A stretch of 64,000 nt of DNA from an uncultured Candidatus Saccharibacteria bacterium (GCA_964479005.1 CAYZJA010000001.1:80642-144641); one strand, 5' to 3'; positions 3,099 to 50,359 are shown, counted from the stretch's first letter. Translations and numbers: made by a program. The notes: a model not told the origin generated them from the letters alone.

Positions 3099-3257
3099 AA
3101 TTTAGGTAAAAAAGAAATTAAAGTAATCTTTATTATCTATTACTTTTTCTACTTTTTAATTCCTTTATTAGCTAAGATATTAATTATATTATATACTTAT
3201 ATATAATTTTAATAAACTAATCTTTATAAAAAGCTAAAAATTAAGGGAGAATTTATT

Positions 3258-6577: not shown

Positions 6578-7363
6578 TTGTATATGTCCCAATATTACAA
6601 TTCACAAAGAACGCATGGATTATATGATTCTGCTTCAAAAGAGCCGTTTAAAATTTCGCGGTCAAAAATTGATTTGTTTTTGCAATGTCCGCGATGTTTT
6701 TATTTGGACAGAAAATTGGGAGTCGCGCGGCCGCCAGGATTTCCATTTGCTTTAAATAGCGCTGTTGATACTTTACTAAAACAGGAATTTGATATTTATC
6801 GCGCTAAAGGCGCAAAACATCCTTTTATGGAAACTTATAAGGTTGATGCTGTTCCTTTTAAACATGAAAAGCTTGAAGAATGGCGTGATGCAAGAACAAG
6901 GGGAATAACTTATCTCCACAAACCAACAGATTTATTAATTACTGGTGGCATTGATGATATTTGGGTAAATTCTAAAGGAGAATTAATTATTGTTGATTAC
7001 AAGGCAACATCAAAGAACGGAGAAGTGAGTTTAGACGCTGATTGGCAGATTAGCTATAAAAGACAAATGGAAATATATCAGTGGTTGTTTAGAAAAAACG
7101 GATTTAAAGTTTCTGATACTGGATATTTTGTTTATTGTAACGGTAAAACAGATGTAAAAGTTTTTGATAATAAATTGGAATTTGATGTCACTTTAATAGC
7201 ATATAAAGGTGATGATTCTTGGATAGAAAAAACTATTTCTGATATTCATAAATGTTTGAATAATGATAAAATTCCAAAAGCAGACGCTGATTGTGATTAT
7301 TGTAACTATGTTGAATCAGTAAAATCTAAAACAATAGAATCTAAAAACGGAACATTGTTTTAG
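6578..7363 (+). CDS. PD-(D/E)XK (Cas4/RecB-like) nuclease family protein
   Basis: CPRCFYL near the N-terminus, GGIDDIW...IIVDYKAT (D...D/ExK core), C-terminal CDYCNY. Confidence 0.65.
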   Translation: MYMSQYYNSQRTHGLYDSASKEPFKISRSKIDLFLQCPRCFYLDRKLGVARPPGFPFALNSAVDTLLKQEFDIYRAKGAKHPFMETYKVDAVPFKHEKLEEWRDARTRGITYLHKPTDLLITGGIDDIWVNSKGELIIVDYKATSKNGEVSLDADWQISYKRQMEIYQWLFRKNGFKVSDTGYFVYCNGKTDVKVFDNKLEFDVTLIAYKGDDSWIEKTISDIHKCLNNDKIPKADADCDYCNYVESVKSKTIESKNGTLF

Positions 7364-12361: not shown

Positions 12362-12503
12362 AATGAAGATGAATGAAGATAAAATTGTCAACTTTTCAAT
12401 ATATAAAGAGGCGTTTGGTTTAGAACTGAACGTCTTTTTCATTAACAAGGACTAGCTTTACTAAATTTATGCCTTTGGCATTTGTCCTTATTTGGTGTGG
12501 GGG

Positions 12504-40517: not shown

Positions 40518-40524
40518 ATCTATT

Positions 40525-40945
40525 GACGATTGAACCTATAAGCCGAATTCTGTATCCTGTTAAACAGGACGATAGTCATTTATCTAGCCCTGAAATTACT
40601 CTCAGGGTCAAGCGGCCACTTTCTGACAAATGTCAGAACACGAGCCTTGCACCCAGTAAGGATTTAGCCGTTTCATTCTTGAAATTGCTTTCAAGACTCA
40701 CCCTAATTAAAAAATAATTAGGGTGTTTTGAACTTTTCAGTTCAAAACGTCTCTGTTCGCACCTCTATTCCAGTTGTAAATCCGTCATTAGCGTTACCGC
40801 TAAGAGGCAAAAACTGGAGCGATAGCTGTTAGCTATTACCTTTTACCAACTTTGTTTTAGGCAAAATTGGTGGTGTTCGGACTTTCCTCCCCGCCTAAGT
40901 TTTGCGAACAAAATTTTGGCGGGGTAACTACCCAGTTCAATCGAG
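40525..40945 (-). ncRNA. rnpB: RNase P RNA, bacterial type A
   Basis: The minus strand reads ggcggggaggaaagtccgaacacc (P4 5' strand), ggtgcgaacagagacg, ggctaaatcc..gggtgcaaggc, and acagaattcggcttatagg (P4 3' strand). P1 is cgattgaac/gttcaatcg. Confidence 0.93.
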
Positions 40946-46090: not shown

Positions 46091-46483
46091 ATGAAAAAAT
46101 TATTATTGATTATAATTAGTTTAGCTCTTATTCTTCTCTTTTCATCAAGGATTAGGGAGGATTTGCAGACATATCGATTATTAACTGATGAAGTAAAAAG
46201 CCTAGAGCAAACAAAAGGCAATATTGAAAAAGAGAGGGAAAAGACTGAGCAACTTTTGGAAAAGGAAAAGCAAGAAGAGACACTTGAGCAGGCAGCGCGT
46301 TTAATGTTAGGACTTAAAAAAAGCGGGGAAGAAGTTATAATGATTTTACCTCCTAAAAATTCTTCTGATTCCGAACTTCAAATTAGTACTTCTTCTGATG
46401 TTTTACCTGAAAAATCTTTTAATTCCTTTTTTTCCAAAATTTCTCAAATTTGGTATAATTTAATAAGAAAATTAAAAAAATAG
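46091..46483 (+). CDS. septum formation initiator (FtsB/DivIC)-like protein
   Basis: N-terminal TM segment, coiled coil, then EQAARLMLGLKKSGEEVI resembling the family's are.LGl.kpgE.v motif. Confidence 0.55.
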   Translation: MKKLLLIIISLALILLFSSRIREDLQTYRLLTDEVKSLEQTKGNIEKEREKTEQLLEKEKQEETLEQAARLMLGLKKSGEEVIMILPPKNSSDSELQISTSSDVLPEKSFNSFFSKISQIWYNLIRKLKK

Positions 46484-46526
46484 ACGTTGCGGGCATCGTA
46501 TAGTGGCAGTACGTAACCTTCCCAAG

Positions 46527-46546
46527 CCCCCACACCAAACGAGTAT
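46527..46546 (+). repeat. left arm of the 20-bp inverted repeat inside the split tRNA
   Basis: cccccacaccaaacgagtat. Its partner is at 46638-46658. Confidence 0.9.
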
Positions 46547-46550
46547 CATT

Positions 46551-46621
46551 GCGAGATTAGTATAGTGGTAGTACATCACCTTCCCAAGGTGAAGGTGCCG
46601 GTCCGATTCCGGTATCTCGCT
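46551..46621 (+). tRNA. tRNA-Gly(CCC), nested within the insert
   Basis: gcgagat ta gtat agtggta gtac a tcacc ttcccaa ggtga aggt gccgg tccgatt ccggt atctcgc t. Complete cloverleaf, but the T-loop has C at position 55. Confidence 0.75.
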
Positions 46622-46637
46622 CCGTTTAAAATTTAAA

Positions 46638-46658
46638 ATACTCGTTGTGGTGTGGGGG
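46638..46658 (+). repeat. right arm of the inverted repeat
   Basis: atactcgttgtggtgtggggg is the reverse complement of the left arm with one extra g. Confidence 0.9.
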
Positions 46659-46778
46659 CAAGGTTAAAGTGTGGGTTCGATTCCCATTGTCCGCTCAAAT
46701 TATTTTTTCGTTACTATCCAAAAAGATTGACGAAGTTTCAAGTGCAATATGGTTTTGTATAATCTTTTTACATTGCTC

Positions 46779-46807
46779 TTGACAAATAGTTTTACATCGC
46801 ATATACT
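46779..46807 (+). promoter_or_regulatory. promoter TTGACA-17-TATACT for the island genes
   Basis: ttgaca aatagttttacatcgca tatact. Confidence 0.55.
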
Positions 46808-46848
46808 GGAGTTAGGTCGTAATAATTAACTATTTCATCACCAAAGCT

Positions 46849-47136
46849 ATGGCTACAAAAAAATTTAGTCCAACAAGAACAATAACGCAAAAAAACCTCG
46901 AAAATGTACCTGGCGACAAGCCAGGTGTCTATCGCATCAAAAACGCGTCAAATGATATTCTTTACATAGGTAAAGCAAAAGGAGGTAGATTAGATGACAG
47001 AATCGCTGAACATAAAGGACAATTCCAAGGTGGAACGAAATTCCAGTATAGATTAACTCACAGCAAAGATGCCGCCGAGCGATTAGAGCGTAAAGAAATT
47101 CGTGAATGGAAACCGCCTAGAAATAAAGATAAATAA
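46849..47136 (+). CDS. stand-alone GIY-YIG nuclease-domain protein
   Basis: PGVYRIKN..NDILYIGKA ... RIAEH ... ERKEIREWKPPRN (GIY / YIG / R / E order). Confidence 0.6.
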   Translation: MATKKFSPTRTITQKNLENVPGDKPGVYRIKNASNDILYIGKAKGGRLDDRIAEHKGQFQGGTKFQYRLTHSKDAAERLERKEIREWKPPRNKDK

Positions 47137-47139
47137 TTT

Positions 47140-47625
47140 ATGCCCTCTTCGTTAAAAACATACGCGAGCATAGAAGACATCAATAGAATTTATATGAGGG
47201 CTAATGCGCATAGTCTTACCGAAAGAATTAATAAGGATAGTGGTCTTGAACAAGATGTTTTATACATAGAAGCCTTTTTATTGCAAGCAACGTTATTGGA
47301 AGGCGTTCTTGTTAATCTTGGTCTAAGATTATTAGAAAGCAAAAAAGAATTAACTGGGCTTAAAGGTAAAAGATACGTTAAATATGGTTATGATAATGCG
47401 ATCAATGATTTATATTTAATGAATGCGATAAAAACAAAAGAGTTTAATTTATTAGAGAAATATAAATCAAAAAGAAATAAGTATATTCATAATCTATTGT
47501 CAAAAAATACGGAGTGTATAGAAAATGAGGTTTTGGATATTCATAATCAGTATAAAGATTTTGTTTGGAAAATGATAAAAAAATTGGGGAGATTAGAGAA
47601 AAAAAGATTAAGTAAAAAAAAATAA
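47140..47625 (+). CDS. hypothetical protein with HEPN-like Rx4H motif
   Basis: Predicted all-helical. KSKRNKYIHNL (R-x4-H) in the C-terminal third. Confidence 0.4.
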   Translation: MPSSLKTYASIEDINRIYMRANAHSLTERINKDSGLEQDVLYIEAFLLQATLLEGVLVNLGLRLLESKKELTGLKGKRYVKYGYDNAINDLYLMNAIKTKEFNLLEKYKSKRNKYIHNLLSKNTECIENEVLDIHNQYKDFVWKMIKKLGRLEKKRLSKKK

Positions 47626-47629
47626 AACT

Positions 47630-48406
47630 GTGCTTACAAAATTTATTCAAAAATTGCGAAAAAAGAATAATATGACGCAGGAATTTTTGGCGTCCGAGTT
47701 GAATATCTCTCGTCCTACTTATGTTCAAATAGAACAAGGCGAACGGGATTTAACTATCACCGAAGCGGAAAAACTAGCTTCTATTTTTGGAATTTCTTTT
47801 GAAGATTTTAGACATGGAAAAGATTCTTCAATTACCGCAAAAATTGAAAAGAATAAAATCAAACCAAAAATAGGAAAACAAGAGATAAGAATTAACGTCC
47901 CGCAAAAAAATCTTAAAAAATTTAAGGAAGTTTTACTTTATGTTTTGTCAAAAGTCGGCGGTAAATCAAATGTCGGCGAAGCGGTATTATATAAACTGCT
48001 TTATTTTATTGATTTTGATTTTTACGAAAAATTTGAGGAACAATTGATTGGCGCGACATATATTAAAAATCATTATGGGCCAACTCCTGTTGAGTTTAAA
48101 GCTATTATTGGCAATATGATTCAAAACGATGAAGTCGTAAAAGTTGAGGGAAAATATTTTAATTATCCACAAAGAAAATATCTGCCAGTTAGACGGCCAG
48201 ATCTTAATGTTTTATCTGGACGAGAGATAGAACATATTGATGATGTTTTGGCGCGTCTTGCTGATAAAAATGCTAAAGAAATGGAAAATTACTCCCATGA
48301 AGATATTCCGTGGAAAACGGCGGAAAATGGCAAACCACTTTCCTACGAAAGTGTTTTTTATCGTGACGAACGTTATTCTGTAAGAAATTATGAAGACGAA
48401 CTTTAA
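47630..48406 (+). CDS. XRE-family HTH fused to Panacea (DUF4065, SocA-like) antitoxin domain
   Basis: LRKKNNMTQEFLASELNISRPTYVQIEQGERDLTITEAEKLASIFG (HTH_XRE). LLYVLSKVGG...VLYKLLYFIDFDFYEKFEEQLIGATYIKNHYGPTP (DUF4065). Confidence 0.75.
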   Translation: MLTKFIQKLRKKNNMTQEFLASELNISRPTYVQIEQGERDLTITEAEKLASIFGISFEDFRHGKDSSITAKIEKNKIKPKIGKQEIRINVPQKNLKKFKEVLLYVLSKVGGKSNVGEAVLYKLLYFIDFDFYEKFEEQLIGATYIKNHYGPTPVEFKAIIGNMIQNDEVVKVEGKYFNYPQRKYLPVRRPDLNVLSGREIEHIDDVLARLADKNAKEMENYSHEDIPWKTAENGKPLSYESVFYRDERYSVRNYEDEL

Positions 48407-48725
48407 TGAACTATCTGAATTTTCTAAGGAATTTAAGCGGTTTTCAAAAAAATATAAATCGTTATATGATGACTTAGAAGAGTTTAAGCGCATCGTTGAT
48501 GTTGTACCATTAGGAAATAGCAAGCATTTTAATATTATTACACAAAACGAGCAATGCACCGTTATTAAGGCTCGTTTCTTTTGTCGTTATTTAAAACACT
48601 CTTCTTTAAGGATTATCTACGCTTTTTACAGCCAAAATTGTAAAATTGAGTTTATTGAGATATATTTTAAAGGCGAAAAAAATAATGAGGATCGCGAGAG
48701 AATCAAAGATTACTTGAAAGATTAA
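48390..48725 (+). CDS. RelE/ParE-superfamily (HigB/Gp49-like) toxin candidate
   Basis: FSKEFKRFSKKYK ... SLRIIYAFYSQNCKIEFIEIYFKGEKNNED pattern. Overlaps the antitoxin gene by 17 nt. Confidence 0.5.
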   Translation: MKTNFNELSEFSKEFKRFSKKYKSLYDDLEEFKRIVDVVPLGNSKHFNIITQNEQCTVIKARFFCRYLKHSSLRIIYAFYSQNCKIEFIEIYFKGEKNNEDRERIKDYLKD

Positions 48726-48758
48726 AAATAGATTTTGTTATTCTCTCACAGAAAATTT

Positions 48759-49202
48759 ATGGATAAAAGAATAATCAGGGAAAAATTGGATTTAATCAGA
48801 GGAGAAGTTATCTCATCCGCCACAAGAGTTGAGTTCGTTCTCGGCTATCGCTTAAGAAGGTATTTTTTTCCTAAAAGTAATAATAAAGCAACAATTCTTT
48901 TTTGGAATGTTATGAATACTCCTTACCTTACTTTTGATAATAAAATTAGTATTTATGAATCAATACCTTATTTTAAAAAATTGAAAGGTTATCCTACTAT
49001 TAAAAAATCTTTGAGATTTGTTCAGAGGTTGAGAAATACAATGGCTCATTGGGATTTAGATGAAAAGAAAAGCGATCTTAAAAATATTTTTATGTTCACA
49101 TTAGTTGGGAAATATAGAAAAATAACAATTAACGATAACTTGATTGAAAATTATAGAAAACAGATTACTTTTCTTCTAAAAAAATTTGGTTATAGTAGAT
49201 GA
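48759..49202 (+). CDS. HEPN-domain (Abi-like) protein candidate
   Basis: FVQRLRNTMAHWD, the RNxxAH form of the HEPN Rx4-6H motif. Confidence 0.45.
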   Translation: MDKRIIREKLDLIRGEVISSATRVEFVLGYRLRRYFFPKSNNKATILFWNVMNTPYLTFDNKISIYESIPYFKKLKGYPTIKKSLRFVQRLRNTMAHWDLDEKKSDLKNIFMFTLVGKYRKITINDNLIENYRKQITFLLKKFGYSR

Positions 49203-49276
49203 AGCTTGACGAGGGATTATCTATTTAGATGAAATCTTTTTTGTTTTCTCACTCTTATCTTAAAAAGATAATATAC

Positions 49277-50359
49277 TCAAATTATTCTTCCGCCGCCTAA
49301 GCATTTATCCTTTTGATAAAATACAGCAAATTGACCTGGGCAGGGAGCAAAGACGCCTTTTTTAAAGATAATCTTTAATTTTCTTTTTTCTGGAATTAAA
49401 CAAGCTTGCGATAGTTTTTGTTGATAGCGGGTTTTAACTTGCGCATGAATAGATTTTATCATTCTTTTTCCTGAAATCAAATGATATGGAAAAACAAACA
49501 GCTCTTTTTTATAAAGAGTTTTCTTATTTTTAGTAACAAAAAGTGTGTTTTTATTCTTATCCCAGCCTGCTACAAAATATGGACCCCCAGATAATTTTAT
49601 ACCTTTTCGTTGGCCTAAAGTAAAAAAATGTAGCCCTTGATGTTTAGTCAGTATATTTCCTTTTAAATCTAAAACTGGTCCTTGTTTTTCACCAACCTTT
49701 TCTTTAAGAAAGGGACAAACTGATTGGCCAGCAACAAAGCAGAAATCTTGGCTTTGTTTTTTCTTAATAAAAAATTTGAAACCTTGCTTTTTAGCAATTT
49801 TATATATGTCTTTTTTTATATAATTTGCTAATGGAAAAATAATATGAGCAAGATATTTTTGTGGTAATAAGCATAAATTATATGATTGGTCTTTATTTTT
49901 ATCTCGCGCTTTTAAAAGCTCATATTTTTTGGTTCTATTGTTTAATCTGAGTCGCGCATAGTGGCCAGTGGCGATATATTGAATCTTGTGTTTTCTTGCC
50001 CATTGCAATAACTGTTTAAATTTAAAATTAGGGTTACAAATAACGCAGGGGTTTGGAGTTCTTAGATTTTTCCATTCGGAAATAAAATAATCAACAACTT
50101 CTTTTTGAAAATCTTTTCTGGCATCTATAATATAGTAGGGGACATCTAGTTTTTTGCAAATGTTCTTGGCGATTTTCAAAGACTCCTTAGTGCAAAAAGG
50201 GTTTTCTTTAAAAGGATTTAATTTGTTTTGCCAGATAGGTAGTTTTAAAGAAACGCCAATTGGGTTCCACCCTTGCTTTTTTAATAATATTAAAGCCATG
50301 GAAGAATCTATTCCACCTGACATTCCAACAACAATTTTTTTACCCTTACCTAATTCCAT
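49277..50359 (-). CDS. mnmA: tRNA 2-thiouridine(34) synthase
   Basis: VVGMSGGIDSS (PP-loop), NPCVICN, ATGHYAR. Confidence 0.93.
   Translation of the reverse strand: MELGKGKKIVVGMSGGIDSSMALILLKKQGWNPIGVSLKLPIWQNKLNPFKENPFCTKESLKIAKNICKKLDVPYYIIDARKDFQKEVVDYFISEWKNLRTPNPCVICNPNFKFKQLLQWARKHKIQYIATGHYARLRLNNRTKKYELLKARDKNKDQSYNLCLLPQKYLAHIIFPLANYIKKDIYKIAKKQGFKFFIKKKQSQDFCFVAGQSVCPFLKEKVGEKQGPVLDLKGNILTKHQGLHFFTLGQRKGIKLSGGPYFVAGWDKNKNTLFVTKNKKTLYKKELFVFPYHLISGKRMIKSIHAQVKTRYQQKLSQACLIPEKRKLKIIFKKGVFAPCPGQFAVFYQKDKCLGGGRII

Follow-up and report, generated by a model that had tools for sequence, protein, structure and literature searches.

A probable mobile element that carries its own tRNA-Gly(CCC) inside the anticodon loop of a tRNA-Gly(CCC) gene in a Candidate Phyla Radiation genome

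How does a complete tRNA gene come to lie inside another gene for the same tRNA, and which of the two serves the cell? The question is raised by a locus in the 64,000-nucleotide stretch of uncultured Candidatus Saccharibacteria DNA analysed here (CAYZJA010000001.1:80642-144641; the window, in what follows), where a first-pass annotation had described a tRNA-Gly(CCC) gene split in its anticodon loop by an insert bounded by inverted arms and enclosing a second tRNA-Gly(CCC). Three explanations had been proposed at that stage, namely a mobile-element-like insertion bringing a replacement tRNA, a tRNA split or spliced at the RNA level, and a decaying duplication. All coordinates and sequences then given, including the halves of 38 and 33 nt, the arms and the CAAG at both junctions, were reproduced in our analysis, and the parts of the locus are listed below (TIR, terminal inverted repeat; CPR, Candidate Phyla Radiation; loci used for comparison bear numbers of the form L016).

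46489-46526, plus strand: 5' half of the outer tRNA-Gly(CCC), 38 nt (acceptor, D arm, 5' strand of the anticodon stem, loop through G39), identical with the intact L016 gene over its initial 38 nt
46523-46526, plus strand: left copy of the target-site duplication CAAG, the last 4 nt of the outer 5' half
46527-46546, plus strand: left TIR CCCCCACACCAAACGAGTAT, 20 nt; the same 20-mer ends elements at 25 CPR metagenome or genome loci
46527-46658, plus strand: entire inserted element, 132 bp, consisting of TIR, CATT, passenger tRNA, 16-nt spacer and TIR
46551-46621, plus strand: passenger (inner) tRNA-Gly(CCC), 71 nt, T-loop TCCGATT, CCA not encoded, called by ARAGORN, Rfam 64.6 bits
46638-46658, plus strand: right TIR ATACTCGTTGTGGTGTGGGGG, 21 nt, with one extra G relative to the left arm
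46659-46662, plus strand: right copy of CAAG, the target-site duplication of 4 bp, corresponding to C36-A37-A38-G39 in the outer tRNA
46663-46695, plus strand: 3' half of the outer tRNA-Gly(CCC), 33 nt (3' strand of the anticodon stem, variable loop, T arm, 3' strand of the acceptor, discriminator), identical with the intact L016 gene over its final 33 nt

Our reading, to which we assign a probability of roughly 78%, is that a mobile, non-autonomous element of 132 bp entered a chromosomal tRNA-Gly(CCC) gene at its anticodon loop, where it duplicated the target CAAG, and that the tRNA it carries as a passenger replaces the gene that it broke.

The outer gene is not visible to standard tools in its native state. 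ARAGORN in intron mode reports the inner tRNA alone, and for this reason the outer gene was validated through the joined sequence and an intact orthologue. Its 5' half terminates in ...TTCCCAAG, and once the halves are joined in silico the sequence reads ACCTTCCCAAGGTTAAAGTG continuously and forms the clean 71-nt cloverleaf already described, which ARAGORN calls tRNA-Gly(CCC); the identical sequence, intact at L016, scores 61.0 bits with the Rfam tRNA model (gathering score 29). The T-loops differ as had been stated, with TTCGATT in the outer tRNA and TCCGATT in the inner one.

The most trivial origins of such an arrangement would be an assembly chimera, or a local duplication or rearrangement that decays without any mobile element. 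The exact 207-nt string spanning the locus appeared in contigs of 10 different samples assembled by two pipelines (JGI and Logan), while an eleventh contig ends within a shared ACCTTC repeat, so that the suspicion of a chimeric assembly is laid to rest by 10 independent metagenome assemblies with an identical arrangement. A local duplication could be invoked from the 40-nt stretch that both tRNAs share at 83% identity. However, inner and outer tRNA are just 75% identical overall, the inner one groups with passengers of other genomes (97% and 86% identity), and the insert is bounded by a 4-bp duplication and by TIRs known at many other loci. We regard these two origins as refuted, with a probability that is practically nil.

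The state of the locus in relatives answers the first part of the question. In related Paceibacteria, whose DivIC proteins are 94%, 89%, 85% and 74% identical to that of the window, only 4-5 nt separate the DivIC gene from an uninterrupted tRNA-Gly(CCC) gene, after which the end of mnmA comes directly. At L016 (DivIC 89% identical) the order is DivIC, 5 nt, an intact tRNA that matches the joined outer halves at 71 of 71 positions, and MnmA; L025 (94%), L019, L022 and L077 likewise bear intact genes at this locus. In the alignment, the window allele equals the intact allele plus the 132-bp element and a second CAAG, and if the element and one of the two CAAG copies are deleted, what is left is precisely the intact L016 tRNA gene. 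The insert is thus a DNA insertion, precise relative to the intact allele of sister genomes. The uninterrupted allele that the first-pass annotation had proposed to look for does exist and differs by exactly the element and one copy of the duplication, a precise empty site with a target duplication that refutes the idea of a decaying duplication.

Is the insert a member of a family? An arm scan that allowed the 1-nt indel was run over metagenomes, GTDB representative genomes and IMG/VR, and the arm pattern appeared at 21 metagenome loci and 4 GTDB genome loci, every one of them in CPR bacteria (metagenomes of Paceibacteria type, Saccharibacteria, Wolfebacteria, Minisyncoccales); the previously suggested search of other genomes for the 20-nt arm thus yielded 25 loci. 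No match was obtained among IMG/VR contigs, which were included with regard to a viral origin. Within the window, 0.01 occurrences of the arm sequence would be expected by chance. At almost every locus a second, inverted arm lies 25-260 nt away, delimiting elements of 65-303 bp with unrelated interiors, which hold nothing, a tRNA or a gene for a GIY-YIG nuclease of 85-92 amino acids. After removal of duplicates, 17 distinct insertions were counted. Perfect 4-bp direct flanks surround nine of them (CAAG four times, TAAA/TTTA three times, TCAA and TGAA once each), and the flanks of three more agree at 3 of 4 positions, the chance of a 4-bp flank match being 1/256 per element. Flanks of the CAAG/CAAG kind seen in the window recur at L033, L048 and L044. 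Since terminal inverted repeats come together here with a target duplication of a few bp, with occurrence at many unrelated sites and with an empty site that is exact, the insert is best described as an element resembling the transposable elements of the miniature inverted-repeat type (MITEs); it is small, its sole content is the tRNA, and it has no transposase gene of its own. A solo TIR-like sequence, GTCCTTATTTGGTGTGGGGG, lies at 12484-12503 of the window in an intergenic region without a partner arm; it probably represents a member of this family that has decayed.

Members without cargo give an indication of how the family coexists with host genes. At L028 (2231-2298; also L043 and L032) a cargo-less element of 68 bp sits in a type IV pilin-like gene, where element and TTTA duplication add 23 in-frame codons and recreate ...VWG/FTLAE (...RLVWG/FTLAE) at the prepilin cleavage site. 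At L037 (5859-5988) the element breaks the old leader and supplies its own ATG and leader, MKIIKGIQRLIKNIFHTRKAKSNTRLVWG/FTLVE, ending in ...RLVWG/FTLVE. The cargo-less elements thus occur in two different pilin-like genes, both times at the G/FT codons of the prepilin cleavage site, and, to judge from their reading frames, the sister elements in protein genes evidently stay in the mRNA.

Passengers of the same kind as that of the window were found at four further loci, L026, L031, L033 and L048, some of which preserve older layers of invasion. L026 contains the outer 5' half, the left arm and a complete passenger, on which the native downstream flank follows directly, neither a right arm nor an outer 3' half being left; its outer 5' half shows one difference from that of the window and carries the variant of its own lineage. 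L031 comes from a more distant relative, in which the LepA-FtsB locus is syntenic. Its passenger is intact, but a base change, an additional A and a palindrome of 20 nt have corrupted the anticodon region of the outer tRNA, so that ARAGORN no longer calls Gly(CCC). This perfect palindrome, CCTGCCTGCCGGCAGGCAGG (3190-3210, minus strand, in the anticodon region of the dead outer tRNA), may represent another kind of small palindromic insertion. L033 represents another locus, which follows the genes for GatB and a DedA-like protein on their downstream side, and its positions 6707-6990 hold three layers: the 5' half of a first tRNA-Gly(CCC), a variant arm (CCCCCGCACCAAATC...), and a second tRNA split at CAAG by an element with a complete third one. 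At its outer end only part of the outermost right arm is present, and the 3' half of the first tRNA is absent.

The Saccharibacteria locus L048 (2190-2470, minus strand) has CAAG/CAAG flanks, and its outer tRNA is preceded by a decayed left arm and by the same AGTTCT spacer that precedes the passenger, which marks the outer tRNA itself as an older layer. Both its tRNAs have the T-loop TCCGATT. The C55 of the inner tRNA in the window, to which attention had been drawn, is indeed there; its use as evidence of decay was ruled out by the presence of C55 in both copies of L048, and from these sequences U55C may be a change that certain CPR lineages tolerate in this tRNA, or one that is typical of it there.

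Hence the proposal of a MITE-like insertion that brings a replacement tRNA, one of the three made at the outset, is supported by the empty-site allele, by further copies of the TIR family and by repeated independent cases. The passengers of the window, L026 and L033 are 86-97% identical to one another (that of the window 97% to L026's and 86% to L033's) and 75% identical to the resident gene of the window; the Saccharibacteria passenger is closest to its own outer gene (82%). Passengers outside the window reach Rfam scores of 63.7 to 70.1 bits. In all six passenger/target pairs a tRNA-Gly(CCC) lies within a tRNA-Gly(CCC), at the same CAAG position and in sense orientation despite the symmetric TIRs. 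Among the elements found, no cargo-less member of the family resides in a tRNA, and a search for inverted repeats around other tRNAs in 80 sequences showed only tRNA-Gly(CCC) genes so flanked, in a set that held just 12 other tRNAs.

Could the 136-nt insert instead act at the RNA level, as an intron or processing cassette from which the inner tRNA is released while the outer halves are ligated, or held together non-covalently as a split tRNA on the 22-bp helix, so that both tRNAs function? As RNA, the 207 nt are predicted to fold into nested cloverleaves at -86 kcal/mol with a strong z-score (z = -6.35 against shuffled sequences), the junction could, given the CAAG ambiguity, fall at the canonical intron position 37/38, and three outer genes, those of the window, of L048 and of the second L033 layer, have kept their halves intact. 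However, the junction in both the minimum-free-energy and the centroid structure consists of an extended stem of 7 bp, a single bulge of 5 nt and an unbroken helix of 22 bp, which is not a bulge-helix-bulge, and manual inspection for an alternative 3-4-3 bulge-helix-bulge arrangement revealed none. No intron or ribozyme family of Rfam matched the insert at E <= 1, where the scan returned nothing but tRNA save a sub-threshold small-RNA match, and 136 nt are too small for a group I core; the earlier judgement that the insert is neither a group I nor a bulge-helix-bulge intron therefore holds. Moreover, the outer genes of L031, L026 and the first layer of L033 are corrupted or half-deleted next to intact passengers, the sister elements in protein genes are in frame or have their own start codon and would remain in the RNA, and the host context is bacterial. 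A split or spliced outer tRNA finds no support in these data, and we consider it very improbable.

If the insert is a mobile element, which of the two tRNAs works? One promoter-like site bears on this point.

46431-46459, plus strand: promoter-like site TTTCCA-17-TATAAT with TG in front, about 30 nt 5' of the outer tRNA, 10/12 matches

Its -10 region does not vary among the five relatives aligned, and no other promoter-like site was found on the plus strand inside the element or before the inner gene. From its position, this site is the probable promoter of the complete 207-nt transcript, in which the inner tRNA is contained. That all passengers lie in sense orientation, although their TIRs are symmetric, is in keeping with selection for being expressed from the promoter of the resident gene. 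Considering also that the outer copies of L031, L026 and the first layer of L033 are corrupted or partly lost and the passengers intact, the split outer gene is most likely dead, and the inner tRNA is most likely the functional gene, expressed from the native promoter. In the mechanism that we propose, the locus would be transcribed from this promoter upstream of the outer gene, RNase P together with 3' processing and CCA addition would release the inner tRNA, which would take over decoding, and the outer 5' and 3' pieces with the 22-bp helix would be thrown away as waste. Because the resident gene is destroyed, the element could not be lost without cost, and the passenger would become the target of the next invasion, which would explain the Russian-doll loci.

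What might move such an element? Between the same TIRs, family units of about 300 bp at four genomic sites contain a GIY-YIG open reading frame (ORF) of 85-92 amino acids.

L027, 404-706: TIR-GIY-YIG unit
L041, 1-51: TIR-GIY-YIG unit
L052, 1475-1776: TIR-GIY-YIG unit
L057, 1475-1877: TIR-GIY-YIG unit

L027 and L041 are two sites in one aquifer metagenome, and L052 lies inside an atp operon. The units appear wedged between essential genes (rpmI, secG, atpF/atpH), where the TIR end provides an in-frame GTG (MGV...) for rpmI, secG and atpH as well as an in-frame stop for the upstream gene; in the 92-residue forms the ORF runs through the TIR (...TRLVWG) into a flanking stop codon. At L057, a second small hairpin element is nested within the right TIR. 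The TIR-associated protein matches GIY-YIG and T5orf172 in Pfam, and its nearest solved relative is UPF0213 (1zg2, E = 4e-7). On the basis of these linked genes, the single-domain GIY-YIG nuclease of 85-92 amino acids appears to be the best candidate for moving the family.

The restriction of tRNA-carrying copies to tRNA-Gly(CCC) is a further part of the question, which random insertion at a 4-bp target cannot explain alone. Random insertion followed by selection explains that a cargo-less copy does not persist in a tRNA, and fits the recurrent pilin insertions at one harmless position; it does not explain the absence of tRNA-carrying copies from neutral sites. Homing or a targeting directed by the cargo may be at work.

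In the case of homing rather than transposition, a nuclease would cut the intact tRNA-Gly(CCC) at the anticodon loop and repair would copy the insert from a filled allele, for instance after DNA uptake, the CAAG/CAAG flanks being inherited from a first insertion. Such a route would account for the identical position and orientation of all six tRNA-carrying insertions, with none elsewhere, and for the patchy alleles among close relatives (the window filled, L026 half-deleted, L025, L016, L019 and L077 empty), and small GIY-YIG nucleases are linked to the TIR family. Nevertheless, the outer tRNAs of the different cases are 63-76% identical, with some 12 nt of common homology around the site, and no conversion tract of donor type is seen, the halves in the window being 100% of local type and the L026 5' half carrying the variant of its own lineage. 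In addition, the cargo-less siblings enter many unrelated sites with 4-bp duplications of their own, as in transposition, and the nucleases of 85-95 amino acids are devoid of a DNA-binding domain like that of known homing enzymes. We judge homing unlikely.

An extension of the transposition reading can be put forward tentatively, and we hold it to be doubtful as it stands: the passenger itself would steer targeting, for instance because its anticodon stem-loop pairs with that of the target when the DNA is single-stranded, or because a nuclease recognises the tRNA gene in folded form, and each invasion would kill the resident and install a copy that is the next target, the whole family being mobilised by the GIY-YIG protein of 85-92 amino acids. 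Such a drive by tRNA gene replacement, if real, would place the TIR-GIY-YIG units of about 300 bp among the smallest autonomous DNA transposons known and reveal a new class of transposase.

Several observations weigh against our reading of the locus or against parts of it. To our knowledge, no GIY-YIG nuclease has ever been shown to transpose DNA, and a search of the 64-kb window for a second complete element or a TIR-GIY-YIG unit turned up only the solo remnant at 12484-12503. The insertion chemistry appears not to be uniform, since five of the 17 insertions lack a target duplication and all five have GGGGG/TGAA at one end; neither a single target consensus nor a single chemistry emerged for the family. 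The restriction of the tRNA-carrying copies to tRNA-Gly(CCC), dealt with above, belongs here as well. L079 (1897-2032) shows an intact tRNA-Gly(CCC) of resident type, 24 nt, the decayed 3' half of a passenger-type tRNA and then the native downstream flank, and a derivation of this state from the other alleles in one step failed, no simple path fitting; its sequence hints that this locus had already passed through rounds of invasion and replacement. Finally, the outer halves of the window are undecayed. Since the useless 5' half of L026 also differs at one position only, their pristine state points to recency and not to function.

Comparison with known systems helps to define what is new in the insertion. 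Bacterial MITEs and palindromic elements, such as the Rickettsia palindromic elements, Correia/NEMIS and ERIC, are likewise small (65-300 bp in our family), with TIRs that form a long hairpin, short target duplications and many unrelated sites, and as in the Rickettsia elements some copies are translated in frame within host genes (the 23-residue insertion of L028). In contrast to them, the element described here carries a complete tRNA gene, of the same isoacceptor as the gene it interrupts, invades recurrently at the same site, in the same orientation and in nested fashion, and its apparent full-length relatives encode only a GIY-YIG protein of about 90 amino acids and no DDE or HUH transposase. 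A review of prokaryotic MITEs from 2024 does not mention tRNA (PMC10969869).

The TIR-GIY-YIG units recall in their layout the Ssn proteins, single-domain GIY-YIG nucleases acting on single-stranded DNA, whose genes are bracketed by scattered hairpin target repeats (NTS/SRM) and whose gene architecture has been likened by the authors to an insertion sequence (Chenal et al. 2025, PMC11893778); that work mentions neither Patescibacteria nor tRNA. L027, L052 and L057 similarly show a gene of about 90 codons for a GIY-YIG domain alone between copies of a scattered repeat. The differences are that the Ssn repeats are self-contained hairpins of about 30 bp, whereas two 20-bp arms surround a variable interior in our family, that no TIR-bracketed nuclease occurs in the window, and that the nearest solved relative of the CPR protein is UPF0213, not a tested member of Ssn/cd10448, the resemblance being one of layout only. 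The likeness may serve as a lead, with no claim of membership.

The locus also invites comparison with systems that target tRNA genes. Integrative elements and prophages in tRNA genes encode an integrase and bring the part of the tRNA that overlaps the att site, by which one hybrid gene is regenerated and a partial direct repeat is left. Like them, the present element has a tRNA gene as its target and brings along sequence by which the function of the tRNA is preserved; unlike them, it comes without an integrase, delivers a whole independent tRNA and leaves the resident as two complementary halves. No integrase was found between DivIC and MnmA, and the outer pieces are those complementary halves and not duplicated att-like repeats. 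Classical integration at an anticodon-loop core was considered and rejected, as it would yield hybrid tRNAs, yet both tRNAs are internally coherent.

Collaborative or intronless homing is carried out by free-standing GIY-YIG endonucleases, for example T4 SegB in a tRNA cluster. As in that process, a small nuclease gene family is linked here to an insert that disrupts a conserved gene at a fixed site; the nucleases of our family differ in having no DNA-binding domain, and the neighbouring 95-residue GIY-YIG protein belongs to another cassette. With tRNA introns the locus shares an insert in the anticodon loop of a CPR tRNA gene and an outer gene that standard tRNA finders miss; group I introns have been described in tRNAs of Patescibacteria (PMC13011429). 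In contrast to group I or archaeal bulge-helix-bulge introns, the insert has neither a ribozyme core nor a bulge-helix-bulge, and it displays TIRs, a target duplication, a tRNA as cargo and decaying outer genes. In the searchable literature we found no tRNA-carrying MITE, no nested tRNA genes of this kind and no GIY-YIG nuclease with repeats in CPR bacteria. The insertion is therefore a MITE-like element with an unprecedented relationship between cargo and target, and possibly with a driver of a new type.

Such an element would illustrate how selfish DNA can survive in very compact genomes, namely by breaking an important gene and bringing a working substitute, which is in turn the next landing site and leaves fossil layers of half-tRNAs. 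Its relatives in protein genes appear equally 'polite', as they restore the site of prepilin cleavage or, between the genes of an operon, provide a stop and a start codon. For annotation, the locus implies that tRNA finders overlook the outer gene and that half-tRNA remnants could be misread as split or intron-containing tRNAs, while tRNA gene phylogenies of CPR bacteria may mirror element-borne replacement instead of vertical descent. It likewise points to tiny, repeat-bracketed GIY-YIG nucleases as candidate drivers, a possible link to the recently described Ssn nucleases.

The surroundings of the locus are those of an ordinary bacterial chromosome, the genes upstream being those of RNase P RNA, DUF4012, MurJ, LepA and DivIC/FtsB, and those downstream MnmA and IscU/IscS-like ones. 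From the homologues of its DivIC protein, which are annotated as Pacebacteria or Paceibacterota, the window is assigned to the Paceibacteria within the CPR/Patescibacteria. The RNase P RNA, of bacterial class A (40523-40943, minus strand), scores 110.1 bits against a gathering score of 100 and appears as a divergent form of CPR type; its enzyme is the one that would free the 5' end of the inner tRNA.

A stand-alone GIY-YIG gene some 150 bp downstream of the tRNAs had been pointed out before, and a 95-residue ORF does begin 153 nt after the tRNA locus (46849-47136). It was discarded as a part of the tRNA element, having its own direct repeats, its own recurrent neighbours and only marginal similarity to the TIR-associated GIY-YIG proteins, and it belongs instead to a separate insertion of 2,582 bp that follows right after the tRNA (46694-49292), is bounded by the direct repeat CTCAAATTATT(Y)TT(Y)CG at 46694-46710 and 49276-49292, and is absent from all relatives examined. 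As L026 has the passenger tRNA but no such cassette, the tRNA element and the cassette are independent insertions. The cassette encodes a GIY-YIG/DUF7508 protein (95 amino acids), a protein of 161 amino acids, a helix-turn-helix plus SocA/Panacea protein (258 amino acids) and ORFs of 111 and 155 amino acids. From its gene content it looks like a mobile cassette of toxin-antitoxin or defence-like type that targets the 3' flank of the tRNA, and its four-gene module (GIY-YIG/DUF7508, a protein of about 156 amino acids, helix-turn-helix plus SocA/Panacea, and one of about 110 amino acids) recurs in other CPR genomes at different sites, often directly behind an IS110-family transposase.

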